From positions 1-12,601 of IMG/VR virus record IMGVR_UViG_2606217105_000016: 12,601 nucleotides of DNA; one strand, written 5' to 3'. The notes under the pieces are model-generated. The model saw only the letters and a program-made list of their open reading frames with translations. It was not told where the DNA came from and ran no database searches. This document shows positions 1-12,601 of this stretch, piece after piece. Position 1 is the first letter of the stretch, and every line of letters starts with the position of its first letter. This DNA comes from a virus (lineage: Duplodnaviria; Heunggongvirae; Uroviricota; Caudoviricetes). The position numbers and the translations under genes are program-made.

Positions 1-1119
1 TCAAATAACCAACTTAACCCATTCCTGACCTCGAGTATCGTTATAGCGATCGGTGGTTGCCTGGACTTTATGTCCTAGTAATGTTTTTGTATCGATACCC
101 TGTGCACGGTACAGCCGTTCTGATAGAGAGCGTTGTTCATGAAATGTTGGCGGAGTTTTTCCTGCTGGTGGAATTATCCCAGCCAGATCCCGTGCTTTGG
201 CAAAGTAGTCGCTCAGGTTGTCTTTACTCATCGGCTTCGGTTGTTTCTGGTGCCGACTATGGATTAGATATGGACTTAATATTCTGTCTCGGCACCCATC
301 AATAACTTCTTTTAACGTTATCCCAATGGCATCACAGCGTAGTGTAAGCGGTAACGCCAGACGCATTCCGGTTTTTCCCTGGGTGATATGCAAGTGTTCG
401 TTCCACACATCTGAAAAACGCATGTGGCAAATGTCATCACGGCGCTGACCAGTAACAATCGCAAGAAGCATTGCGTTACGGATAAAGTGTTTTTCAGGCG
501 TTGCATTGTAAATTTTTTGCCAGTCTTCCATGGTGAGCCTAGCTCTGGTTACTTTAGGGATCGGTTTACGGGTAGCCTCCGGAGGATTCCATCCAGGAGG
601 AACTTCCCCTGCATGCTGTGCTTCTTTATAAATATCAACCCATAATCCACGATTTACTCTCGCTGTGCTGACCATGTCTTTATCCAGCCACTCATCCAGT
701 ATTAATGCAAAGTCTCTTACTTCCAGTTCTTTCAATGGGTGGTTTCCCAGACGGGAAACCAGGTATGCAGCCATTCGAGTTTTTTCTTTGTGAGTTGTAG
801 CTGCAATATCTCCATTTTTCAGTCGCGTGTCCTGTATTTTCAGATATCGATCAACCCATGCCTTTAATCTGATACCCCGACGTTTTGTTGCTGACGGACT
901 TTCATCAATTTTGCGCATGAAATATTCAGCTTCTGCTGCAGCTATTCGCTGATTGGCTGTGGAAGCGATTTTTTCTGCCTTACCTTTGTCTGTTCCGAGT
1001 CCGTGAAATTTTCCAGTCACAGGATTTTTATACTGGTAGTAAACTCTGCCAGTTCTGCGATCAAACTTTTCGTAAAGACCGGCTACGTCAGTGCTGTTTT
1101 TTCGTGGCCTCGGTGACAT
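1..1119 (-). CDS. int: Phage tyrosine integrase (lambda Int family)
   Basis: 372-aa ORF with ATG at 1119..1117 and stop at 3..1. The C-terminus (HEQRSLSERLY...LLGHK...TTDRYNDTRGQEWVKL) closely matches the lambda Int catalytic tail as recalled (HELRSLSARLY...LLGHK...YRDDRGREWDKI), including the His/Arg and Tyr nucleophile region. The start overlaps the upstream excisionase gene as in lambda int/xis. Confidence 0.93.
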   Translation of the reverse strand: MSPRPRKNSTDVAGLYEKFDRRTGRVYYQYKNPVTGKFHGLGTDKGKAEKIASTANQRIAAAEAEYFMRKIDESPSATKRRGIRLKAWVDRYLKIQDTRLKNGDIAATTHKEKTRMAAYLVSRLGNHPLKELEVRDFALILDEWLDKDMVSTARVNRGLWVDIYKEAQHAGEVPPGWNPPEATRKPIPKVTRARLTMEDWQKIYNATPEKHFIRNAMLLAIVTGQRRDDICHMRFSDVWNEHLHITQGKTGMRLALPLTLRCDAIGITLKEVIDGCRDRILSPYLIHSRHQKQPKPMSKDNLSDYFAKARDLAGIIPPAGKTPPTFHEQRSLSERLYRAQGIDTKTLLGHKVQATTDRYNDTRGQEWVKLVI

Positions 1120-1357
1120 GAGTTAAAATCTCCTTCAGTGCATCATCATCGCCAGTATGAATTTCCGGCGCAATTCCCGTTTCACCAGGCCCAACAAATA
1201 CTGCTCGGCGATCTATCAGCCAACGCCCACGAATTTTTTGTGGTCTTGGAACGATGTATCCTAGTTTTCCGTATTTCACCAGGGTAGTGTTTGTTATTGG
1301 GAGACTGAACCGTTTTGGTTTCCACTCGTCGAGCGTTATCAGGTACTGTTCGCTCAT
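1088..1357 (-). CDS. xis: Excisionase-like protein
   Basis: Small (~89 aa) basic ORF immediately upstream of int, overlapping it by 32 bp. ATG at 1357..1355 is preceded by GGAG about 8 nt upstream; the ORF track extends to a GTG at 1366. Position and size fit a lambdoid Xis; sequence identity was not verified. Confidence 0.65.
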   Translation of the reverse strand: MSEQYLITLDEWKPKRFSLPITNTTLVKYGKLGYIVPRPQKIRGRWLIDRRAVFVGPGETGIAPEIHTGDDDALKEILTHVTEATKKQH

Positions 1358-1418
1358 GGCTATCACTCCGGAACGCGCCAGTTGCAGAATATCAACGACA
1401 ACTGGCGACGGTTGAACA

Positions 1419-3890
1419 TTAAAAATCAGCCTGACTCGGGATCAGTTTTTGCCAGATAACTGAAACGTATTTTGCCTGGTAACGGGCGTCATCAAGTGCA
1501 TTATGGCGCTCACCTTCGAATGGAATAGCCGTTCTGGCATCGAAGTCTATGGCTTTCCCCAGCTCAACGATTGTGCGTACATCGCGATCGTTGTAGTAAC
1601 GCCACGGGCAGGGGATCCCCTGCCGTTCGTATGAACGGCGCAAAATCGTGTTGTCGAAGTTGGCTCCATTTCCCCAGACCTGAACAAAAAATTCACCGGA
1701 GTTTTCGTCGATAAATTCCCGCAATTGTAACAGTGCATCATCTAACGGGATTTCATCGGTCATAATGGCAGATTGCGCCTCGCGTGATTGCTTAAGCCAC
1801 CATTTAATGGTGTCACGATCAATGACTCCGCCAGCAGTTTCCAGATCGATAGTCTTACTAAATTCCGGTCCCATATCTCCGGTTTGCGGATCGAAAAATA
1901 TTGCACCTATTGAGATAATCGGGGCATCAGGATTTTTTCCCATGGTTTCAAGGTCGATCATTAGATGGTCACACGTCCTGCTGGTGGATGTGATAACGCG
2001 ATGACCGTTCACCGTAATTAAGGGATCTGCCGTCTCGCCAGTTTCACTATCGCTGGCGTGATCCTGAGCGCTGCCAGCATTCTCCTTGTGTGGGTGTTCA
2101 GCGCCTTCCATTTTCTCCGAATCGTCTTCCTGAACTTCAACCTGGTTCTTGTCATCGAATGTTTCCTGGTATGTTGCGTCGCCCATCACCGCACCACAAT
2201 CAGGGCAGTTGCCACCACCGCTCTGACCGCAGGCGGTGCAGATTTTTTCCGGTTCCTGTTGCACTACTGGTTCAGGTTGTTTCGTTTCTGGCTCGTTTTG
2301 TTGCGTATTTGGGCTGTTTTGTTCCGCTTTCTGGTCGTTCTGTTCCGTTTCTTGCTGGTTCTGGTTCACAGTATCGCGGGTCTGGATCCCCTTAACCCAT
2401 TTCGGATCATTCGGGTCGCTAATCCCTTCAATAAATTCACCACGTGATGCAGCAAGCAACTTATCGGCGTCAGGCTGGCTGATATTGGCTGCCTGCATAA
2501 TTTTGTTTACTTCGTCAGCGGTAACTTTTACCGGTTCTGGCTGTGCGGTCGTGTCAGATGCACCAGTATTTTGTTGTGAACCTGAGTATGTACTGTTTTT
2601 GCGGGCGAAATATTCTTCTTTCGTGATTTCAGTAGCCCCGGCAGCCAGCGCCTTATCCAGACCAGAAAGTTTGTTTGCGCGACCGTATTTTTCGCCATCC
2701 TTGTCGGTGAAGAGGAAGTAGAACGGCCCCTCACGCTCTACAGATGGTTCGACTTCCACTTTGCATTCGGTTTTTTCGTTGTCCGGAATTGCCGTTTCCA
2801 CTGCATCAGTTTCTGGTACTGGCGACGAGAGAGTATCAGTTGCGCTCTGATTTGTTCCTTCATCTTCAAACACGCCCTTTGTAGTCAGGTATTCAGTAAT
2901 GTATTTGTTCAGTGCCACAGGATCTTTGTGAATGTCGATCGGACGTCCACGGACAAGGCCAAAAATAGTCTGGCGGTCGTAGCGAAGGGCATCAGGCTGT
3001 TTGCGCATCGATGCCGAGATACGCTTCCAGTCTTCGCGGTCGTTGTCGATAACTTCATTTTTTGCCCAGCGATGGATGCTGCCGTCAATGTTTCCGGCAT
3101 CCACATCACCAGGCCAGAGAGCGTAGGCCAGTTCGTCATCCAGTGTTTTCCATGTCTGCTTGTATTCGCGACGAATGACTGCAGTGACAGGGGAGATATT
3201 TTCTGCTGAGTTTTCAGTGTGCTGTCGGTTGACTCTGGCGCGGGCGAGATCAACAGCAGACGTGTATTTTCCGGTTTCCTTGCGTTCACCTTCGCGACGT
3301 TTTTTCCAGATGCGCATCTCTGCCTGAATTTCGGGCCATTTAGCTCCAGGCTTACATTTATGCTTAACCCACCCGATGGCATGCAACTTAAGTTCTGGAT
3401 ACATGGCGTTAACTTCTGGCATTTTCATCAACGCTTCAACGATATGTCCGTCGAATGTTGCCATGTCTTCCTGCAACAATTCCTGCGCGCTAATCACCAT
3501 ATCAACGGTGATGTTTTCACATGTGTCGAACTTAACCATGACAGCGTTCTGTACTTCAGGGGCCAGCTTGTCAAAAGTGACGTTCATCGGATCTGATTCA
3601 GTCTCAACCGGGACAAAGGAAGCAGACTCCTCATCCCAGCGGTTTTCCTGCATATATTCAGCATCCCAGGAATCGAGGGCAGGGCGGGGTATACCGGGTT
3701 TATCCTCGCAAACAAGAAATTTATAAGCGCAGTCCTGAGCAGCCGGATAATGCTCCAGGAATTGCCAGTGAAATTTTGCGCGGGCGCGACGTTCATCACC
3801 GGCTTCAATGGCAGTGGCTACAGCGACTGCACCTTCTTCCTTTATTGCCTGTTCGTCCGGAATGGCGGCGCAAATAAAGACTTTACTCAT
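1419..3890 (-). CDS. Exodeoxyribonuclease VIII-like protein with C-terminal DnaQ-like DEDDh 3'-5' exonuclease domain, CxxC-x7-CxxC zinc ribbon and Q/E/N-rich linker
   Basis: 823-aa ORF, ATG at 3890..3888 with GAGG upstream. C-terminal roughly 190 aa carry the exonuclease motifs Exo I (MIDLETMG), Exo II ([13 protein letters not shown]) and Exo III ([10 protein letters not shown]). Zinc ribbon [15 protein letters not shown] is encoded near 2190..2237. A low-complexity Q/E/N/P linker is encoded near 2236..2400. Confidence 0.85.
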
Positions 3891-3982
3891 TTTGTTTTAC
3901 CTCATTACAGATTTAAGGGTGAACAAATCCCTGCCATTGCTGGCATATAAGAATGAAAGCGGATGTTTATTACGGAACTGTT

Positions 3983-4174
3983 TTAAAGACCTGCCGGGAT
4001 TTCGTTATTATCCTGGTGAATAACTTTATCGACCGGGTAACAGTTACCGGGAATTTTCTGTTCGGTTGCTGCAGTCATACATTCCTGCATTGTCCTGTGA
4101 ACACTGACTGCAATATCAACTGGCTCTCCGGAAACAAGATAAACTGTCAGAACAAGCGCAAATGCTGAATTCAT
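3983..4174 (-). CDS. Small hypothetical protein with N-terminal signal-peptide-like hydrophobic segment (~63 aa)
   Basis: ATG at 4174..4172 preceded by AAGGA 8 nt upstream. Begins MNSAFALVLTVYLVSGEPV, which looks like a signal peptide or membrane anchor. Its start overlaps the stop of the upstream ORF in an ATGA arrangement. The ORF track's longer 81-aa version starts further upstream at 4228. Confidence 0.5.
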   Translation of the reverse strand: MNSAFALVLTVYLVSGEPVDIAVSVHRTMQECMTAATEQKIPGNCYPVDKVIHQDNNEIPAGL

Positions 4175-4359
4175 TGTGCACATCCTTTTGGCATCAGACG
4201 TAAACGAGCCAGCATTGAAACAATGCATATTTTATTTAATAGCTCCCGTTCTTGTTTTCTCTTGTTAATGGCATCTTCAGTAAATACTGGGTTACTGATA
4301 GTGACACCAATTTCAAAACAACCTTCAGACGTATTAACGTTTGGTAATAACGTTTCCAT
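4171..4359 (-). CDS. Small hypothetical protein (~62 aa)
   Basis: ATG at 4359..4357 preceded by GAGGA 7 nt upstream. Its TGA stop (4173..4171) overlaps the ATG of the downstream gene, suggesting translational coupling. The ORF track's 97-aa version starts at a GTG at 4464, which is less convincing. Confidence 0.45.
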   Translation of the reverse strand: METLLPNVNTSEGCFEIGVTISNPVFTEDAINKRKQERELLNKICIVSMLARLRLMPKGCAQ

Positions 4360-4917
4360 TATCGCGTCCTCAACAATGAATTTTGTGATGCGGTGCCTGG
4401 TGCCTCCAGGTGACGTTAACCAGTTAACAATTAACGCCGGATACAGAGAACCCACCCATAACACTGTTTTTGGTTTTAACTGTTCCGCGTGCGCTTAGCC
4501 GCATTCACCGCATCACAAAATTCACTTTAAAAAGGGCGGCAGAGCAGTCACGGAGTAAAACTGATACCGCCAAACGCCACCAGAAAATTGATAACAGAGG
4601 GCGTTGCAGCGGGGTTGTCACTTAAGCGTATGGTCAACCTGACAACCCGGTGTCCTCAACGGGGAAGGAATAACCCCGCCATACTTACCGCCGCGCCATT
4701 TCGCGGATTGCCACAACCGGAAGCGCACGGTCGAATTAAATTTAACGACACCGTACAGACAGAATAACTTCGCCGTGCGCTTTCGCGTTATGTCCTGACT
4801 TTTCAGGGATATATCCTTCCAGTAAACTGCCAGTGCCGGATGCTCACCCGTGTCCGGCGCACGCACTCCACCTGACCCGTGGAGAACTCCTTAATTACCA
4901 ACCCTCAGGAGGGTGAA

Positions 4918-5139
4918 ATGACTAGTAAAAATGTAAATATCCAGTTTAACCACGATGTTTCTCCTGCTGGACTTGCGGATGAGCTCACTGCTATAAAAAC
5001 GGCAATTATGCTACTTGCTGCTAAGTTGCCTGCGTCATCAAAGCCAGCGGAAATTTGTGACTCATTGCGTAAGATGAATTCAACAAAATGCAATGAGATG
5101 GCATCACTTATTGAAAGTGCAATTGATTTTAATGATTAA
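4918..5139 (+). CDS. Hypothetical small protein (73 aa)
   Basis: ATG at 4918 preceded by a canonical AGGAGG (4907..4912) with 5-nt spacing. It is the only plus-strand gene in a block of minus-strand genes and overlaps the 3' end of the convergent gene 5129..5503 by 11 bp. Confidence 0.5.
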   Translation: MTSKNVNIQFNHDVSPAGLADELTAIKTAIMLLAAKLPASSKPAEICDSLRKMNSTKCNEMASLIESAIDFND

Positions 5140-5503
5140 TCGAAATTTCATGGCTAACTGTAACACTCCCATCTGTGGCGGGATGGTTTAAATCGCTGGG
5201 ATTAATGCCGCACTCAGTAAAATGGTTCTTAAGGGGTTCTATCCGAATCCCTTTCTTTTTCATTAACAAGCCAAACCCCTTATCAATGATATCCATTAAT
5301 TCCAGGAGGTATTTTTCATGTAAATCCTGGTTATCAGAGAGCTGCTTCTCTTCGTACAGACCGATAAAGGCACGACGCACGTTACCGGATATAGTATCGA
5401 TGGTTTCTTTTTCTACGGTACTCAGGTCAAGAGTCGCCAGTTGGGAACGAACTATATTCGCTGCCATTTCCTGGAATTGCATTGGTAAATCTTTAAATTC
5501 CAT
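5129..5503 (-). CDS. Hypothetical protein (124 aa)
   Basis: ATG at 5503..5501 with GAGG upstream. It is the second gene of the leftward operon downstream of the repressor-flanking operators. No recognisable motifs. Confidence 0.6.
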   Translation of the reverse strand: MEFKDLPMQFQEMAANIVRSQLATLDLSTVEKETIDTISGNVRRAFIGLYEEKQLSDNQDLHEKYLLELMDIIDKGFGLLMKKKGIRIEPLKNHFTECGINPSDLNHPATDGSVTVSHEISINH

Positions 5504-5525
5504 TATTAGCCTCGTTGGTTAGCTA

Positions 5526-5744
5526 TTAACGCGGGCATGTAATCATTCTGGCAATGCTTAATGCCGCTGCTTTTTCCAGCCTGGTGATATCCTGCTCCAG
5601 AGCGGACAGATTTTCAGCCTGCTTAGCCTTGGCTTCATTGGCCCATTTCAGATCCTGCGCTGCATTAATTTTCTGGCGCATCCACTCATAAAGTTCATCA
5701 TCGGTATAGTCTGGCGCGATGATGACGGGTTCTCGTTTCTGCAT
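5526..5744 (-). CDS. Hypothetical protein (72 aa), first gene of the leftward early operon
   Basis: ATG at 5744..5742 preceded by GAGGA 6 nt upstream. Acidic, predicted helical. It lacks an arginine-rich N-terminus, so it is not an obvious lambda N-type antiterminator. Confidence 0.6.
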   Translation of the reverse strand: MQKREPVIIAPDYTDDELYEWMRQKINAAQDLKWANEAKAKQAENLSALEQDITRLEKAAALSIARMITCPR

Positions 5745-5939
5745 ACTGATTCCTCGCGGTGCTGTTTCCCCTTAACGCCGGGGTAGCGGAACAAAAACCT
5801 GCTGCATAGTTATTAAAGTTGAACCCTGCCGTCATGTTCTTACGCCTCGGGCTGGCTACTTAACCCCTGACCACTGCCTGGTAACTCAAAGTATTGCCCT
5901 GCATTCTGTGGGGCGGGGTGGGTTGGTATGAAAAGAAGG

Positions 5940-5978
5940 ATACCCATAGGTATTTAAAAAGTAAATACCCATGGGTAA
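5940..5978. promoter_or_regulatory. OL-like operator pair with a leftward pL-like promoter
   Basis: Two 14-bp palindromic sites 25 bp apart: ATACCCATAGGTAT (5940..5953) and ATACCCATGGGTAA (5965..5978, containing the perfect 12-bp palindrome TACCCATGGGTA). On the minus strand these interleave with a -35-like TTTACT and a -10-like TATCCT, mirroring the OR/pR arrangement. Confidence 0.6.
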
Positions 5979-6019
5979 CCTTTTGCAGTGTCTTAACTGG
6001 TGACTAGTTGTTTGGTGAG

Positions 6020-6439
6020 CTATGATGCGTTTTGTGCTTTCTTTTTACGGATTTCTTCGTAGATCATATTGTAATACTGTTTTTTCTCTTCAAGAGTTTT
6101 TAATAATTTATCCGCTTCACTTTCTGGCAGTTCGTCTAAGAGATCTAAAAAAATACGTTGTCGTGGCGTTAGAACCCTTGTTTCATAACTGGAGGCTGTG
6201 TTCGTTGATGATGAAACGATACCATCCATCCATCCCCGGGGTAACCCAAAGGACTCTTCGATAATCTCCACCATATCATCAGCGATCCGTTTTTTTCCCT
6301 TTTTCCCCTCTGGGTACAACATTCTTGATACATAAGAAGGCTCGCGCCCGATCTTTCTGGCCACGTTAACCGCTTTACCATCGCATTTCTCATCACGAAT
6401 TTTGATGAGTTGCTGTCGTCTAAATTCATATTTGTCCAT
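6020..6439 (-). CDS. CI-like phage repressor (HTH DNA-binding protein)
   Basis: 139-aa ORF with an HTH-like segment (AVNVARKIGREPSYVSRMLYPEGKKGKKRI). It is divergently arranged with a Cro-like gene across an operator-bearing intergenic region. There is no Shine-Dalgarno before the ATG, which sits about 7 nt downstream of a TATTAT -10 on the minus strand, suggesting a leaderless mRNA as for lambda cI from pRM. The repressor is small, with no obvious S24 peptidase domain. Confidence 0.75.
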   Translation of the reverse strand: MDKYEFRRQQLIKIRDEKCDGKAVNVARKIGREPSYVSRMLYPEGKKGKKRIADDMVEIIEESFGLPRGWMDGIVSSSTNTASSYETRVLTPRQRIFLDLLDELPESEADKLLKTLEEKKQYYNMIYEEIRKKKAQNAS

Positions 6440-6445
6440 AGGTAA

Positions 6446-6514
6446 ATAATAGATGCGATTACTGCAAGGTAAACAACCTGTGGGTATTGACTTTTGTTTA
6501 CCTGTGGGTATTCT
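6446..6514. promoter_or_regulatory. OR-like operator pair with divergent pRM-like and pR-like promoters
   Basis: Two 14-bp sites 24 bp apart: CAACCTGTGGGTAT (6474..6487) and TTACCTGTGGGTAT (6498..6511), sharing the half-site GGTAT with the OL sites. pR-like -35 TTGACT (6487..6492) and -10 TATTCT (6509..6514) overlap the operators. pRM-like -10 (minus-strand TATTAT, plus coordinates 6446..6451) sits just upstream of the repressor ATG. Confidence 0.6.
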
Positions 6515-6539
6515 TTGCTGTGTTTACTAAGGAGTAGCT

Positions 6540-6821
6540 ATGGAAGAATTAAGAATATTTCTCAATTCTCTTTCGTCAGATGAACAGCGTATGTTTGCAT
6601 GCGAGTGTGGTACCAGCATCGGTTATCTAAGAAAGGCATTGAGTAAAGGTCAAGTGTTAGGGGCATCGTTATGTGTCCTTATTGAGCGAGCCAGTAATGG
6701 TGAAGTTACACGTCAGCAACTAAGGCCTTTGGATTGGATGAATATTTGGCCCGAGCTGGAAGATACCAAAACGTTAACACAACCACTTTCTAGGAGCTTG
6801 ATTCATGAAAATCAAGCATGA
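6540..6821 (+). CDS. Cro-like (YdaS-type) small HTH regulator
   Basis: 93-aa ORF, ATG at 6540 preceded by AAGGAG with 5-nt spacing. The segment CGTSIGYLRKALSKGQ resembles a Cro/YdaS-type HTH. Divergent from the repressor. Confidence 0.75.
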   Translation: MEELRIFLNSLSSDEQRMFACECGTSIGYLRKALSKGQVLGASLCVLIERASNGEVTRQQLRPLDWMNIWPELEDTKTLTQPLSRSLIHENQA

Positions 6822-7230
6822 ACACATCCGCATGGCGATGAATGCCTGGGCGCGTCCTGATGGCGAAAAAGTTCCAGCAGCTGGAATAACCCAGGCTTAT
6901 TTTGAGTTGGGTATGACGTTTCCTGAACTGTATGACGACAGCCATCCGGAAGCCTTGGCTCGCAATACCCAGAAAATTTTCCGCTGGGTAGAGAAAGACA
7001 CCCCTGATGCAGTTGAAAAAATTCAGGCGTTGTTACCAGCGATCGAAAAGGCAATGCCACCTTTGCTGGTGGCCAGAATGCGCAGCCACAGTTCAGCTTA
7101 TTTTCGGGAGCTGGTGGAGACGCGGGAGCGACTGGTGAGAGACGCTGATGATTTTGTCGCAGTGGCAATCGCCGGTTTCAATCAGATGAACCGTGGTGGC
7201 CCGGCAGGAAATGCTGTGGCAGTACATTGA
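6805..7230 (+). CDS. CII-like / YdaT-like prophage protein
   Basis: 141-aa ORF overlapping the Cro-like gene by 17 bp; ATG at 6805 with AGGAG upstream. Size, position immediately after the cro-like gene and the N-terminus MKIKHEHI match my recollection of Rac prophage YdaT. This is from memory, not verified. Confidence 0.65.
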   Translation: MKIKHEHIRMAMNAWARPDGEKVPAAGITQAYFELGMTFPELYDDSHPEALARNTQKIFRWVEKDTPDAVEKIQALLPAIEKAMPPLLVARMRSHSSAYFRELVETRERLVRDADDFVAVAIAGFNQMNRGGPAGNAVAVH

Positions 7231-7301
7231 CTGACAATAGCCATATCGAATCGCTTCCGGCAACTCGTGAGTAAAAAGATTCGGTATCAGAAGAGGTGAG
7301 T

Positions 7302-8372
7302 ATGGCTAACGCCTGGCTCAGATTATGGCATGACATGCCAAATGACCCTAAGTGGCGAACAATTGCCAGGGTGTCAGGGCAGTCAATTGCAACAGTGATG
7401 GCAGTGTATATCCACCTCCTGGTGAGCGCGTCACGAAATGTCACGCGAGGTCACATTGATGTCACGACAGAAGATTTGGCAAGTGCGCTCGACGTGACAG
7501 AAGAGGTAATTGATTCAATTTTGCAGACGATGCAGGGGCGGGTACTTGATGGTGATTTAATCACTGGATGGGAAAAACGCCAGGTGCTGAAAGAGGACAA
7601 CGGCAATATTTCGCAAACCGCAAAATCTCCGGCAGAGCGCAAGAGGGCGCAGCGAGAGAGGGAAAGAAAGCGGGAACAAAATGGAGATTGTCACGGCGCG
7701 TCACGAAATGTCACGCACATGTCACGACGAGTCACGACAGATAAAGATACAGATAAAGATACAGATCAAGAAGATCAAAACACTATGGTCCATGGCGTAA
7801 AAAACGCCACGAACCAGGCAGGGGATGTTCAGACCGTCAATCCTGGTCAGCCAGCAGGCACGACACCGGAAGCCGATTCAGCGTATGCGCTGAAAGCCGA
7901 TTCGGGCGCTGTGCAGCAGGTGATGACCGCAAGGCCGGAGCAATCACACCAACTGCAGCAGCCTGAAGCCGATTCCGCCATTCAGCGGGAAGCCGATCGG
8001 GTAGTCCCGGAAAACACCGGGCAGCCTGTGAGACGAGTGGATTATCCGGATGTGTTCGAACAGGTCTGGCGGGAATACCCGTTGCGTGCTGGGGCAAACC
8101 CGAAGAAATCCGCTTTCAGTGCCTGGAAGGCCAGATTACGCGAGGGGGTGCCACCAGAGGCCATGCTGGATGGCGTGAGGCGTTACGCAAGATACTTGGC
8201 GGCTACCGGGAAAACGGGAACGGAATTTGTTCAGCGAGCGACGACGTTTTTTGGACCGGACCGGAATTTTGAGAACCCCTGGTTGCTCCCGGTAAGCGGC
8301 ACGAACAACCAGCGTTGTGTGAATCATATTTCTGAACCGGATAACGAAATTCCGCCGGGCTTCAGGGGGTAA
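7302..8372 (+). CDS. Replication initiator-like protein (YdaU/DUF1376-like) with internal iterons
   Basis: Probable ATG at 7302 with AAGAGG 5 nt upstream; the ORF track begins at a GTG at 7296. It sits where lambdoid phages carry the O-type initiator, and contains two iteron clusters in-frame, analogous to ori-lambda inside gene O. It also contains a DKDTDKDTD tandem repeat. Confidence 0.7.
   Translation: MANAWLRLWHDMPNDPKWRTIARVSGQSIATVMAVYIHLLVSASRNVTRGHIDVTTEDLASALDVTEEVIDSILQTMQGRVLDGDLITGWEKRQVLKEDNGNISQTAKSPAERKRAQRERERKREQNGDCHGASRNVTHMSRRVTTDKDTDKDTDQEDQNTMVHGVKNATNQAGDVQTVNPGQPAGTTPEADSAYALKADSGAVQQVMTARPEQSHQLQQPEADSAIQREADRVVPENTGQPVRRVDYPDVFEQVWREYPLRAGANPKKSAFSAWKARLREGVPPEAMLDGVRRYARYLAATGKTGTEFVQRATTFFGPDRNFENPWLLPVSGTNNQRCVNHISEPDNEIPPGFRG
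7426..7470. repeat. Iteron cluster 1 (candidate replication origin element)
   Basis: 45-bp block gcgcgtcacgaaatgtcacgcgaggtcacattgatgtcacgacag with TCACG-type motifs at about 10-bp phasing (7431, 7441, 7451, 7462). Its first 21 bp are identical to the start of cluster 2. Confidence 0.65.
7696..7740. repeat. Iteron cluster 2 (candidate replication origin element)
   Basis: 45-bp block gcgcgtcacgaaatgtcacgcacatgtcacgacgagtcacgacag, exactly 270 bp downstream of cluster 1. TCACG motifs at 7691, 7701, 7711, 7722 and 7732 are phased at roughly one helical turn. Confidence 0.65.
7740..7775. repeat. Short tandem repeat (12-bp unit gataaagataca, two copies plus degenerate copies)
   Basis: gataaagataca at 7740..7751 and 7752..7763, followed by gatcaagaagat. 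Encodes DKDTDKDTDQED inside the replication gene. Confidence 0.7.
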
Positions 8373-8412
8373 GTGTTGATTTCTGGTCATGAGGTAATTT
8401 TCAGGAGGACTT

Positions 8413-8823
8413 GTGGCAAAAGTTTTTACACAAGAAGAGCGAGAAAAAATTAAAGGGCGGGTTGTTGAACTCGTACGCCAGAGTGGGCGTGAGACGTTAC
8501 GGCAACTGGAAGTCAAGACAGGTGCGACAAGATATCTGATGAGCGTTCTCGCAAGAGAGCTGGTTGCCAGCGGCGATGTATACAACTCTGGTTACGGGTT
8601 ATTCCCGTCTGAACAGGCGCGTAAGGACTGGCAAAATGCCCGTAAAAAGCTCTCAAGGGCAAAGCCGAAGAAACCATCTGCGGTTGATCCGGACCTTATC
8701 TGGTCATTACCTGACGGAGAAATACGTCGCTACGACAGGCGTCAGAACATAATCTGTCGCGAGTGCCGGAAGAGCGAAGTTATGCAGCGCGTGCTGGCGT
8801 TCTATCGGCGACGTTTTAGGTAG
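8413..8823 (+). CDS. Hypothetical basic protein (136 aa), possible winged-helix DNA-binding protein
   Basis: GTG start at 8413 preceded by AGGAGG (8403..8408) with 4-nt spacing. Arg/Lys-rich C-terminus with a CxxC-like RECRK segment. Function unknown. Confidence 0.55.
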   Translation: MAKVFTQEEREKIKGRVVELVRQSGRETLRQLEVKTGATRYLMSVLARELVASGDVYNSGYGLFPSEQARKDWQNARKKLSRAKPKKPSAVDPDLIWSLPDGEIRRYDRRQNIICRECRKSEVMQRVLAFYRRRFR

Positions 8824-9399
8824 CGTTACATTGAGCAAACGGTGCAGAATTGAAATAATAGCAATTCGGAAGTATGCCGCTACGATGATGGTTGAAAGCA
8901 TAGGTAAGTTGACTGGGAAGGTTGTTACTGCAGTGAGCTCAGTCCGTGTATATAACCCATCATTGCCTGAAGGTGAGCAACAATCAGGTGCAACCGAAGT
9001 TAACGGCAAGAAGCTATGGCTGATAATGGTTCTGCAAATGCCAAACCGTTAGTGATTTCCGGAGAAACAATGTGGAAGGATATGGCAAAGGTAAAAAGTG
9101 TCTGTGAAAGATGCAAAATATCTAAACCATACATACAACCTCCTATCATGTAATAGTGTCGATGCCATTTCAATACACGGTAGCTCAGGAGAGGGACGAA
9201 AACAGCGGATACCCATTTATCAGTACTGGTTTCTCAATCCTCAGGTTTACCCAAAACTCAACACTAATCCAGCTGGTTATGTGAACCAGGTAAATTCTTT
9301 TGGTGTGAACCTCTTGAAGATGAAAGTTTTTTTGCTATGTTAGTCAAACATAAACTTCCCCTTTTTGAGCAAAAAATACTCTTTTAGAAGGATATTTAA

Positions 9400-11511
9400 A
9401 TGGCGCGTCAATATGAAATGCAGATATCAAGGATGACAGTAGATAAATTAGGTGTGAAATTATATGACAGGGCTTATGCTGTTATAGCCGAATTAGTATC
9501 TAACAGTTACGATGCAGATGCGACTAATGTCACTATAAAAGCACCTATGGGCCAATACTTGGCTGTTAGACAGGATGGTGTTGTCAGGTCAAAAAATGTC
9601 ACAATAGAAGTAGAAGATAATGGCGTCGGAATGGCGCCTGATGAACTACAGAACTTTTATTTGGTTGTTGGCAAAGAAAGACGTAAGGATCCAAAAAGAG
9701 GTGAAACCTCGAAGGTGTTTCACCGCAAAGTCATGGGACGGAAAGGCGTTGGGAAATTAGCACCTTTTGGTGTTTGTAAAAGGGTCGAGATTATAAGTGC
9801 CGGTGGGGAAAAAATCAGTCGTGATGGAAAGGAAGGGTATGAGGTTGCTCATATTCAGCTAGATAAAGAAAAAATAATGGATGATACTGCAGTGTCTTAT
9901 AAACCGGAAACTGGGGATTTAGACGGCACACTAAGTGACAGGACCTATACTAAAATAATATTAAGTGATTTTGAATATAGAAAAATTAGCGAAATAAAAG
10001 ATTTATCTCGGCAGCTTTCACAACGTTTTGGAGTGAAGAGTAAAAACTGGAATATTAAACTGATTGATACTTCGAAAACAAAGTCTAATCCTGACTATGA
10101 AGTTGAGGTCGGAGAGTTTACTGTTCCTGTTATGCCTAACTCTAAAATTGAATTTCGTTCCATGAGTGGAAGTATTGCGACAGATTCTTGTACGGATTTA
10201 AGTGATTATACGGCTTTTAATCCTGACGGCACGCGTTCATCAATTGTTAAGGCCGGTTTTGAACATGAAGGGAAAGCTTACCCGATATTAGGTTGGATTG
10301 CATACGCGAAAGAGCCTTATAAGGACGAGTTAATGGCAGGTGTTAGAATTTATTGCCGAGGTAAGTTTGCTGCGCAAACAGCAGTTTTTAATAGAAAAGC
10401 TGGTTTTACTGGAGAGCACTCTATACGTTCATATTTGGTAGGTGAGTTGCATGCTGACTGGTTAGACGAAAAAGAAGATCTTATCCAAACTGATAGAAGG
10501 GATATTCTATGGTCTGATGATTTAGGAACGCAATTTCAGAATTGGGGGCAAGAAGTTATTTTACTTGTGGGTAAAATAACTCGCGACCCCCTTAGAAATA
10601 ATATGATGAATCAATTCTTCGAATTAGCGCAAGTGGAGGATAAGGTCGAGCAAGCATACCCTGGAGCCGGTCAAAAGGATATGCGAGCACAGGCTAAAAA
10701 AATAGCCAAGTTGTTGGGTAAATCTTTACGAGGTGATGAATTACATGATCCTGATGCACTCGAGAATTTAGTGCAGTTAAGTATTATGTTAGCACCATTA
10801 CAATCCTTAGATGAGAAGTTAATAGAAGCTTCCAGTAAAGCGGATACACCGCTCAATGTTCTCAACGATATTTTAGCAACGGCTCAACTAGCTGAAACCG
10901 TTAGTTTTGGTCAAAAGGTCAAAAAGCGTCTTCAGATTATTGAGCGTCTCGAGTCTTTAAAAGACGCAAAGGATACAGCAGAAGATGAGTTACAAGATCT
11001 AATTGCATCCGCTCCGTGGCTAGTTAACCCTCAATGGGTCCCAGTTACAGCAAATAAAACGTTGTCCACGCTTAAAAGGGAATTTCAAAAATTTTATAAA
11101 AAGAAAACTGGTGAGGAGATATTTCTTATAGATTTTGATAAAAAAAATAAAAGACCAGACTTTGTATTGTTTAGTCAGGATGGAAAATTACAAATAATTG
11201 AAATAAAAAAGCCACATCATTATATTTCCAATGATGAAATGGATCGTATTATTAATTACTTCGAAACATTCGAGGAGTTTTTGAACGATGAGAGACATAA
11301 TGATTTTAAATCAATAGCATCTGATTTTCACGTTACGCTGGTAAGTGATGGGGAGCGCTTGAGTGGGGCACGTCGTAAAGCTTATACTGCATACATCGAA
11401 GAAAAACGCCTAACACCCGTTGATTGGGCAGGGTTCTTGCTGAGGACAACTCAAACTCACCAAGAATTCTTGGATGAGGCAGAACAGTTGAAGTTGGGAA
11501 ATAATGAGTGA
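9400..11511 (+). CDS. GHKL-family ATPase (MORC-like) fused to a C-terminal PD-(D/E)xK nuclease domain; predicted ATP-dependent restriction endonuclease
   Basis: 703-aa ORF, ATG at 9400 preceded by AAGGA. N-terminal Bergerat-fold motifs: ELVSNSYDADA (E-x3-N-x2-D-A), DNGVGM (DxGxG) and GRKGVGK. C-terminal nuclease motif RPDFVLFSQDGKLQIIEIKK (PD...EIK). The stop overlaps the start of the methyltransferase gene by 8 bp. Confidence 0.8.
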   Translation: MARQYEMQISRMTVDKLGVKLYDRAYAVIAELVSNSYDADATNVTIKAPMGQYLAVRQDGVVRSKNVTIEVEDNGVGMAPDELQNFYLVVGKERRKDPKRGETSKVFHRKVMGRKGVGKLAPFGVCKRVEIISAGGEKISRDGKEGYEVAHIQLDKEKIMDDTAVSYKPETGDLDGTLSDRTYTKIILSDFEYRKISEIKDLSRQLSQRFGVKSKNWNIKLIDTSKTKSNPDYEVEVGEFTVPVMPNSKIEFRSMSGSIATDSCTDLSDYTAFNPDGTRSSIVKAGFEHEGKAYPILGWIAYAKEPYKDELMAGVRIYCRGKFAAQTAVFNRKAGFTGEHSIRSYLVGELHADWLDEKEDLIQTDRRDILWSDDLGTQFQNWGQEVILLVGKITRDPLRNNMMNQFFELAQVEDKVEQAYPGAGQKDMRAQAKKIAKLLGKSLRGDELHDPDALENLVQLSIMLAPLQSLDEKLIEASSKADTPLNVLNDILATAQLAETVSFGQKVKKRLQIIERLESLKDAKDTAEDELQDLIASAPWLVNPQWVPVTANKTLSTLKREFQKFYKKKTGEEIFLIDFDKKNKRPDFVLFSQDGKLQIIEIKKPHHYISNDEMDRIINYFETFEEFLNDERHNDFKSIASDFHVTLVSDGERLSGARRKAYTAYIEEKRLTPVDWAGFLLRTTQTHQEFLDEAEQLKLGNNE

Positions 11512-12601
11512 GAAAACAGTGACCAGTTTGAATGCAGTTGACCTATTTAGCGGTGGTGGGGGACTAACCATGGGACTAAAAATGGCCGGGTTTGATGTCA
11601 AAGCTGCCGTTGAACTGGACGCACATGCCGCCGCTACTTTCCAAGCAAATCATCGTGAGACAAAACTCTTTGTTCAAGATATTCGGTTTGTAAAGGGGAG
11701 TGATATCCTAAATCTTATCCCTGAGCAACATTTAGATCTTTTATCTGCGTGCCCGCCATGTCAAGGATTTACTAGTCTCACTGCCAAGTATAAAAGGGAG
11801 GACCCTCGTAATTTATTGATTAACGAGATGTTACGGTTGGTTGAAGAAACCAATCCATCAGCAATCATGATGGAAAATGTTCCTGGATTAGCTTCCCGGG
11901 GAAATCATCTTCTTTCGCCAGTAATTGAGAGATTGAAAAAACTTGGTTACATAGTTAATTATGGAGTTTTGCAAGTAGCTGACTTTGGTGTACCACAGTT
12001 CAGAAAAAGGCTTGTTCTGTTGGCAGGAAAAGGATTTGCCATCCCATTGCCTGATGGATCACACTCTAAGGATGGAAGAGAGAAACCCAAATGGGTAACT
12101 GTTAAAGAAGCTATTGGAGATATGCCAAAACCCTTAACTCTTTCACAGGCTAAGAAGCAAGGGAAGTTTCCATTGTCGAGTTGGCATATTGTTAGGGATT
12201 TGTCTGAGATCAATATAAAGCGGTTACAAGCGGCTGTTCCAGGGATGTCTTGGGAGTGTATTCCCGAAGAACTCCGTCCAGATTGCCATAAAGGCGACTA
12301 TAAAGGATTTAGTAATGTTTATGGTCGTATGCTTTGGGATGACGTATCGCCTACGATTACAGGTGGGTGCACAACTTTAAGCCGTGGGCGATATGGACAT
12401 CCTGAGGATACGCGTACTATTTCTGTTCGAGAAGCTGCTAGACTACAGACTTTTCCTGATAACTATGTGTTTGATACAGCTTTGATGGATAAAGTATGCG
12501 TCATAATAGGAAATGCACTTCCATGCAAGTTTGCAGAGTATTTGGCTAACCACTGTAAAAATTATATTAATAAAGCAAGAACAGCTGGATTAATACCATA
12601 A
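11504..12601 (+). CDS. DNA (cytosine-5)-methyltransferase
   Basis: 365-aa ORF with the canonical m5C methyltransferase motifs: I (LFSGGGGLTMGL), IV (PPCQGFT, catalytic Cys), VI (ENVPGL), VIII (QFRKRLVLL), IX (REAARLQTFPDNYVF) and X (GNALPCKFAEYLANH). A variable target-recognition region lies between VIII and IX. ATG at 11504 overlaps the upstream gene. Confidence 0.93.
   Translation: MSEKTVTSLNAVDLFSGGGGLTMGLKMAGFDVKAAVELDAHAAATFQANHRETKLFVQDIRFVKGSDILNLIPEQHLDLLSACPPCQGFTSLTAKYKREDPRNLLINEMLRLVEETNPSAIMMENVPGLASRGNHLLSPVIERLKKLGYIVNYGVLQVADFGVPQFRKRLVLLAGKGFAIPLPDGSHSKDGREKPKWVTVKEAIGDMPKPLTLSQAKKQGKFPLSSWHIVRDLSEINIKRLQAAVPGMSWECIPEELRPDCHKGDYKGFSNVYGRMLWDDVSPTITGGCTTLSRGRYGHPEDTRTISVREAARLQTFPDNYVFDTALMDKVCVIIGNALPCKFAEYLANHCKNYINKARTAGLIP

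Follow-up and report, generated by a model that had tools for sequence, protein, structure and literature searches.

Proteins that fuse a GHKL ATPase to a nuclease include classical restriction enzymes (HgiDII, BbrUII) as well as VcSduA, an immune nuclease that acts alone, and here we describe a two-gene locus of this kind, made up of a nuclease gene (R) and a cytosine C5 methyltransferase gene (M), at the end of a 12,601-nucleotide (nt) stretch of a Caudoviricetes genome (IMG/VR record IMGVR_UViG_2606217105_000016, positions 1 to 12,601; hereafter the window). In 2008 an N-terminal GHKL domain was noted in the Type II enzyme R.HgiDII (PMC2441816), and M.HgiDII, according to the passage of PMC5867850 that cites it, is an experimentally characterised GTCGAC 5-methylcytosine (m5C) methylase. 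PMC5829577 and PMC5867850 disagree on whether M.BbrUII is a C5-cytosine or an N6-adenine methyltransferase, a conflict of some consequence, since the NCBIfam restriction-enzyme family takes its name from BbrUII; we therefore chose HgiDII as our anchor. The paraMORC3 family, defined in a purely computational study (Iyer, Abhiman & Aravind 2008, PMC2292703), combines GHKL and S5 domains with a C-terminal restriction-endonuclease fold bearing E-D-ExK; its distribution in proteobacteria and bacteroidetes is sporadic, cytosine methylases accompany some members, a link to Vsr was drawn as well, many members stand alone, and the family was proposed to drive DNA looping with ATP. GHKL-bearing DUF4263 proteins have since been classed as Shedu type I-D (Gu et al. 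2023-25), and one GHKL-DUF4263 protein, VcSduA, defends against T1-like phages and a vibriophage, protection being abolished by either E27A, in the GHKL glutamate, or K557A, in the nuclease lysine (Adams et al. 2025, PMC12137116).

The cassette genes of the window all lie on the + strand and are arranged as follows:

9400-11511, + strand: R gene, 703 amino acids (aa), a GHKL-ATPase / PD-(D/E)xK nuclease of paraMORC3 / Shedu type I-D architecture
11504-12601, + strand: M gene, a 365-aa C5 cytosine DNA methyltransferase whose stop is the window's last base
11504-11511, + strand: R/M overlap of 8 nt, with the R stop TGA at 11509-11511 and the M start ATG at 11504-11506

These positions, and the 8-bp overlap, agree with those claimed in an earlier note on this stretch, made from its sequence alone. 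The same note held the class to be experimentally uncharacterised, a claim contradicted by the work on R.HgiDII, paraMORC3, Shedu type I-D and VcSduA cited above and by the NCBIfam model NF050001. What is new here is a widespread, unstudied sister branch of the paraMORC3 / HgiDII-like restriction-modification (R-M) systems, related to Shedu type I-D, and we consider it probable that its representative in the window is a functional two-gene R-M cassette carried as prophage cargo.

Results

Comparison with described systems

Residues 5-697 of R align with positions 1-648 of the 659 in NF050001, the equivalog model for BbrUII/HgiDII, but at 237.4 bits (E 3e-70) against a curated cutoff of 550. 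A Haloplanus plasmid protein that does pass this cutoff (794 bits) is ~25% identical to R and co-linear with it, with BLASTP covering R residues 7-629 and with D587 and E601xK603 of R aligned to its D...DxK; the adjacent partner methyltransferase is 35% identical to M over the full length. R shares the BbrUII/HgiDII-like layout of GHKL N-terminus, middle domain, helical region and C-terminal D...(D/E)xK nuclease, whereas the gene order differs, being R-M here and M-R both in the Haloplanus locus and in one of Pantoea agglomerans that is related but scores below the cutoff, and the site here need not be HgiDII's GTCGAC. By these scores, the window pair is a sister branch of the BbrUII/HgiDII family and not a member of it.

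R also has the features of paraMORC3, namely intact GHKL motifs, an S5-type transducer and a C-terminal E-D-ExK nuclease; what distinguishes the present subgroup is its strict coupling to one orthologous methyltransferase, where PMC2292703 treats the family broadly. VcSduA resembles R in its described architecture (N-terminal GHKL, clamp-like middle and C-terminal PD-(D/E)xK nuclease, in VcSduA of the DUF4263 type) but is a single gene with no methyltransferase. With MORC, MutL and Hsp90 proteins R has in common the Bergerat fold, four nucleotide-binding motifs and transducer, yet identity is 12-15%, and R appears to lack the MORC-specific region and has neither the zinc finger nor the MutL C-terminal endonuclease, in place of which it carries the fused PD-(D/E)xK nuclease. 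The description of the protein as MORC-like in the earlier note is loose, with structural similarity to MORC2 no greater than to Hsp90 or MutL, and paraMORC3 is the precise term. The ATP dependence that the note ascribes to the system is, as regards cleavage, an assumption. Enzymes of the FokI / N.BspD6I type, unlike R, have dedicated DNA-recognition domains and no ATPase. The conserved ATPase residues suggest that nucleotide binding matters in R, which would be atypical for a Type II enzyme.

More distant relatives occur in other mobile settings. P2-like phages carry R relatives at 23-26% identity beside a Dcm-type methylase in cargo hotspots, between the replication gene gpA and the portal or genome end (Escherichia phage PhiR44_1, L091 3492-6540; Yersinia phage P37, L092 2429-5474); one such relative, 23% identical, is annotated 'ParaMORC3' beside a Dcm gene, and set against the R-M order of the window the genes are convergent in one phage and M-R in the other. 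On a Streptococcus agalactiae conjugative plasmid (L090 884-6084), a HaeIII-family R-M pair lies beside a paraMORC3-like protein (249 bits to NF050001) and then a second C5 methylase, making tandem m5C systems. A 'novel type II' R-M system described in 2026 from group B Streptococcus was set aside, as the work concerns an unrelated GGNCC system.

Linkage of R and M across phyla

Scanning one genome per species gave 80 loci with R orthologues at 49-63% identity, which by record title belong to Alpha- and Gammaproteobacteria, Desulfovibrio, Nitrospirota, Acidobacteriota, Chloroflexota, Planctomycetota, Cyanobacteria, Bacillota, Patescibacteria, Verrucomicrobiota, Gemmatimonadota and others. An M orthologue lies directly downstream of R on the same strand in 75 of the 80 (phmmer E 1e-110 to 1e-161) and, with M start codons chosen heuristically, its estimated start falls between -41 and +12 nt from the R stop in 73 of these 75 loci, 30 of them showing a 4-nt overlap; to judge from this survey, the tightness of the R/M junction exceeds chance. 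The five exceptions consist of two loci that end at a contig edge and three with a different C5 methyltransferase within 3 kb, the Methylobacter locus L002 being one of these three. Pairwise identities of R and of M are correlated (r = 0.88), a value reached by none of 999 Mantel permutations. The group thereby presents separate, adjacent and co-inherited nuclease and methyltransferase genes, the layout of a Type II R-M system, and not the single gene acting without a modification partner that marks Shedu. The combination of synteny and co-divergence is therefore the pattern of a cognate R-M pair; it excludes the alternative that the earlier note had itself raised, an orphan methylase that merely has an unrelated nuclease as neighbour, and upholds its preference for an R-M reading over chance neighbours.

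The same survey bears on a different explanation, in which R is a Shedu type I-D immune nuclease that senses infection and is blind to methylation, while M only travels along, shielding the phage genome from host restriction enzymes or serving epigenetic regulation. Orphan C5 methylases borne by phages are common. The C-terminal domain of R probably belongs to the Shedu nuclease family, VcSduA, of GHKL-DUF4263 architecture, protects without a methyltransferase, and many distant plasmid homologues (~25% identity) stand alone, as do the standalone paraMORC3 genes of Iyer et al. However, the methyltransferase that follows R is the same one throughout the syntenic loci, which are mostly chromosomal and non-phage, with codons usually overlapping; its co-divergence with R reflects a retention not expected of a passenger gene; and the nearest named relatives of R are restriction enzymes with cognate m5C methylases. 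We regard a methylation-blind R as unlikely and favor the cognate R-M pair.

Some loci have additional components. A Methylobacter R orthologue with 62% identity (L002 1565-11968) is preceded by genes for a further HATPase_c_3 protein of 708 aa, for a C5 methylase distinct from M and for Vsr. At Nitrospira-type loci (L006, L007, L009, L012 and L016) the M open reading frame (ORF) extends to ~1.6 kb and is fused to a Vsr endonuclease; the fusion protein P0207 (PF00145 + PF03852, 510 aa) exemplifies what would be a three-activity R / M-Vsr module.

Domains and conservation of R

The domains of R, with their catalytic residues, are:

9400-10044, + strand: GHKL (Bergerat-fold) ATPase domain, ~aa 1-215, with motif I E31/N35, motif II D73xGxG77, motif III G113RKGVGK119 and motif IV T184
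10045-10515, + strand: beta-rich middle domain (S5-like transducer), ~aa 216-372
10516-11019, + strand: long helical linker, ~aa 373-540
11020-11508, + strand: C-terminal PD-(D/E)xK nuclease domain, ~aa 541-703
11158-11160, 11200-11202 and 11206-11208, + strand: nuclease residues D587, E601 and K603, with E561 upstream

Pfam HATPase_c_3 matches R at residues 28-140 (7e-19), and the four GHKL motifs align residue by residue with the N-domains of the Hsp90-family proteins HtpG and TRAP1. Across 79 homologues at 52-91% identity, the GHKL motif residues are invariant or nearly so, D587 and K603 of the nuclease are invariant, and E561 and E601 are conserved in at least 90%. With the catalytic residues of both domains so constrained, the ATPase and the nuclease activities are therefore both under selection. 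The most highly conserved stretch of R is aa 301-400, which holds, within the middle domain, an invariant Q363-T364-D365-R366 loop. The QTK loop of GyrB is a nucleotide sensor, and by analogy the QTDR loop may act as one in R.

An AlphaFold2 model of R (predicted local distance difference test, pLDDT, 79; predicted template-modelling score, pTM, 0.59) returned Hsp90, TRAP1, MORC2, MutL, MLH1 and GyrB from Foldseek at E 1e-9 to 1e-11. Alignments of 420-500 columns, with target template-modelling scores of up to 0.60, span the GHKL and transducer regions of MutL LN40, MLH1, MORC2, SMCHD1 and ParE, and R is therefore assigned a GHKL domain plus a transducer domain. In the same model the linker forms helices at 373-409, 423-441, 451-479 and 485-522, predicted with moderate confidence, and an alpha/beta domain follows the helical region. 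The two loops of lowest confidence (pLDDT <50), aa 332-338 and 361-367 (nt ~10393-10413 and ~10480-10500), sit within the best-conserved part of the protein, the invariant QTDR(R) motif included; they are probably ordered only upon nucleotide binding, DNA binding or dimerisation. A sequence search of solved structures returned Hsp90-type GHKL N-domains only and no full-length relative of R.

For the nuclease domain, Pfam gave weak HSDR_N-type matches at residues 552-624 and Foldseek placed the Shedu nuclease at the top. Homologous C-termini match Pfam SduA_C in 15 of 16 cases and HSDR_N_2 in 14 of 16; R of the window has no Pfam SduA_C match at E <0.1, and PADLOC SduA matches it at 1.7e-5. Both folds proposed in the earlier note, the GHKL ATPase and the PD-(D/E)xK nuclease, are thereby borne out by hidden Markov model searches and predicted-structure comparison, and the motifs quoted there are all present: ELVSNSYDADA (E31, N35), DNGVGM (D73-G77), GRKGVGK (113-119), the PD within RPDFV (D587) and EIK (E601, K603). 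PHROGs includes a full-length family of unknown function (phrog_6203), and the superfamily comprises ~2400 representatives at 50% clustering, 217 of them at E up to 1e-30.

The structural proximity of the GHKL-transducer part to MutL/MLH1, besides Hsp90 and MORC, could also be taken to mean that the pair serves methylation-linked repair, with R as a MutL-like ATPase-nuclease that handles T:G mismatches or lesions at M sites, as in MutL-assisted Vsr action. The M-Vsr fusions of the five Nitrospira loci and the Vsr gene near the Methylobacter orthologue would fit such a role, and Iyer et al. raised the possible recruitment of such proteins to repair. Yet Vsr, where present, is an extra component, so that R is not its equivalent; most loci, the one studied here included, have no Vsr; the sporadic occurrence on prophages, integrative conjugative elements and islands is the pattern of defence or selfish genes and not of repair; and the relatives of R include characterised restriction enzymes. 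We give a repair function scarcely any credence beside restriction by a cognate pair.

The methyltransferase

M matches Pfam DNA_methylase (PF00145) over its full length (6e-58, 197 bits against a cutoff of 22), passes TIGR00675 dcm with 154 bits against a cutoff of 100.65, and is matched by PADLOC MTase_II at 9e-91; its solved relatives include DNMT1, M.HaeIII and M.HhaI. All core motifs are in place (I, FSGGGG 15-20; IV, PPCQ with catalytic C86; VI, ENV 124-126; VIII, QFRKR 165-169; IX, REAARLQTFP 309-318; X, GNALP 336-340), which makes M the complete m5C methyltransferase it had been taken for. Between motifs VIII and IX lies one further feature:

M protein, ~aa 186-300: target-recognition region

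Among 76 orthologues this region is conserved like the catalytic motifs, with 42 of 115 columns at ≥90%, which suggests one specificity common to the whole orthologous group and fits its being matched by R. A count of all 4- and 6-bp sites for palindrome avoidance in the 75 loci (933 kb), made without a control set, gave general depletion only, in which no site stood out; GTCGAC, with an observed-to-expected ratio of 0.64, lay inside the general spread.

Cassette layout and prophage setting

At their junction the R frame reads AAT AAT GAG TGA and the M frame ATG AGT GA, and on this reading R and M are translationally coupled at the 8-nt overlap. Beyond the two genes, the cassette and its flanks include:

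8807-9276, + strand: left portion of the insert, ~470 bp, with no annotated gene
9277-9399, + strand: conserved module leader, nucleotide homology with the Serratia and Citrobacter modules beginning at 9277-9304
9314-9341, + strand: putative promoter, TTGAAG (9314-9319), 16 nt, then the extended -10 TGcTATGTT (9333-9341)
9387-9393, + strand: Shine-Dalgarno-like AGAAGGA, 6 nt 5' of the R start, read from the sequence
L001 23317-23338, just beyond the window: strong intrinsic terminator, 15 nt past the M stop

A leader of ~100 bp is conserved between relatives while the DNA farther upstream diverges. Within it, E. coli, Serratia and Citrobacter have the putative promoter block in identical form, and from this conservation alone we infer that it is the cassette's own promoter; the Shine-Dalgarno-like site reads AGAGGGA or AGGAGGA in relatives. 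With its own conserved leader and its own terminator, the cassette, ~3.8 kb in size, is therefore self-contained. A candidate internal promoter for M within R (11198-11226, 10/12 to consensus), whose -35 overlaps the catalytic EIKK codons, was rejected: Serratia, Citrobacter and Pantoea do not preserve its -10, and shuffled sequence yields promoter-like sites at least as often as this region does. Rfam gave no match inside the cassette.

The cassette region is present in 21 of 5426 complete E. coli genomes, always on the chromosome and with R full length at 99-100% identity. In strain elppa4, the annotated genome places it inside a lambdoid prophage integrated beside ompW. Left of the pair lie an integrase, excisionase, RecE-like exonuclease, dicB and ydfABC, then repressor/cro, YdaT, a replication gene and a Ren-like DUF977 gene, and to its right DUF968, RusA, an antiterminator, tRNAs, lysis genes and head-tail genes. 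The left backbone, from 7296 to ~8806, where homology ends, and the right backbone, which begins 17 nt past the M stop, each occur in more than 4000 E. coli genomes, and the segment 8824-9399 is confined to the same 21 genomes as the R-M pair; the insert therefore runs from ~8807 to 12617. Sister prophages have unrelated small genes and hokD in this slot. The cassette is a moron, lodged in the variable stretch of a lambdoid prophage that separates the replication genes from nin/Q. GC content is 0.37-0.44 across 9001-12500, compared with 0.45-0.53 for most other parts of the window, as the description of an AT-rich block had led one to expect.

Such rarity might also point to a decaying remnant, with M active and R inactive, as is often seen in prophage R-M systems, and the 470 bp upstream to which no function is assigned would be compatible with it. 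Against decay stand the full length and at least 99% identity of R across all 21 carriers, the integrity of all catalytic residues, and the intact relatives at 78-91% identity in three other genera. We attach very little weight to decay and retain the reading of a functional R-M cassette.

Several observations concern the neighborhood. The left portion of the insert, 8807-9276, turns AT-rich past ~9000; it is not shared with the Serratia, Citrobacter or Pantoea modules, its ORFs have no PHROG match, and no phage match to it was found. The gene directly before the insert (8413-8823, + strand), annotated DUF977, matches the PHROG 'Ren-like exclusion protein' (5e-46), and the cassette therefore adjoins another candidate exclusion gene. 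In the dicB/ydfABC early region, a full-length DicF antisense small RNA lies at 4534-4585 of the window on the - strand (Rfam RF00039, 76 bits against a gathering score of 48). Phage and plasmid collections held no near-identical DNA.

Close relatives and mobility

Close relatives outside E. coli occur in Citrobacter koseri lambdoid prophages (R 87% identical), again in the region between the replication genes and nin, in a Serratia island adjoining an integrase (R 91%, M 86%) and in a Pantoea ananatis integrative conjugative element (R 78%, M 80%). DNA homology of the window with these modules is limited to ~9277/9304-12600. The R/M overlap is 8 nt in Serratia too and 20 nt in Pantoea, and in the Citrobacter koseri prophages (L082-L084, 10109-10170) M is called to begin 18 or 60 nt past the R stop; the overlap is common but not universal, even between close relatives. 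These comparisons support the view that the pair was acquired horizontally as one operon, is carried as prophage cargo and moves as a self-contained unit, which is how the earlier note had seen it; the 21 carriers, the backbone shared by more than 4000 genomes and the annotated ompW prophage speak for the same conclusion.

Discussion

Our analysis leads us to posit a mechanism in which M would methylate cytosine C5 within one specific sequence, on host and prophage DNA alike, and R would cleave incoming DNA on which this methylation is missing. By analogy with MutL, MORC, Hsp90 and the dimer model of VcSduA, the GHKL ATPase and transducer of R probably dimerise upon ATP binding and clamp DNA, the long helical linker joining this clamp to the FokI/Shedu-like PD-(D/E)xK cleavage domain. 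We suggest that the ATPase cycle licenses or positions the nuclease and is not itself the source of specificity. Through translational coupling, M would be made whenever R is made. A lysogen would in this way be protected from superinfecting phages and plasmids, and the cassette may penalise loss of the prophage, as other R-M pairs do.

A number of points weigh against a functional R-M cassette. First, cleavage, methylation, sequence specificity and ATP dependence are all properties that we infer. The NF050001 score of R lies under the 550-bit cutoff, so that function is not simply transferable from BbrUII/HgiDII, and since VcSduA works without a methyltransferase, this nuclease lineage has no intrinsic need of methylation to tell self from non-self. 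The nuclease domain of R most resembles the non-specific cleavage modules of FokI, N.BspD6I and Shedu, and no separate domain for recognising a DNA sequence was found in R. The Methylobacter orthologue is without its M, a Tn7-like TniQ/TniB/transposase set starting 58 nt past the R stop, and may be a natural instance of R without cognate M. A consensus promoter scan did not list the 9314-9341 block, which scores 8/12 to consensus. Finally, R precedes M and there is no controller protein, which raises the question of how a naive host survives establishment; translational coupling or slow ATP-gated activation of R are possibilities.

We also put forward, far more tentatively and as something we rather doubt, that these proteins form a mechanistically distinct class of restriction enzyme, in which an ATP-driven, MutL/MORC-like dimeric clamp entraps or loops DNA, reads the methylation of the site and only then frees the FokI/Shedu-like nuclease. 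If true, this class would be an evolutionary and mechanistic bridge from methylation-independent Shedu immunity to classical R-M, and the same clamp might delay cleavage in a new host, which would explain how the R-before-M order works without a controller.

In E. coli carriers, the two genes are annotated only as 'ATP-binding protein' and 'DNA cytosine methyltransferase', and since R bears no more telling name, the R-M system is hidden by current genome annotation. The branch combines tight coupling to one conserved methyltransferase with occurrence in many phyla and a natural E. coli prophage copy, and would therefore be a convenient model for how a MutL/MORC-type ATPase controls a nuclease, as well as for the evolution of methylation-dependent versus methylation-independent self-recognition within one protein lineage. 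In its carrier strains of E. coli, Citrobacter, Serratia and Pantoea, the cassette is likely a barrier against phage infection and DNA transfer.

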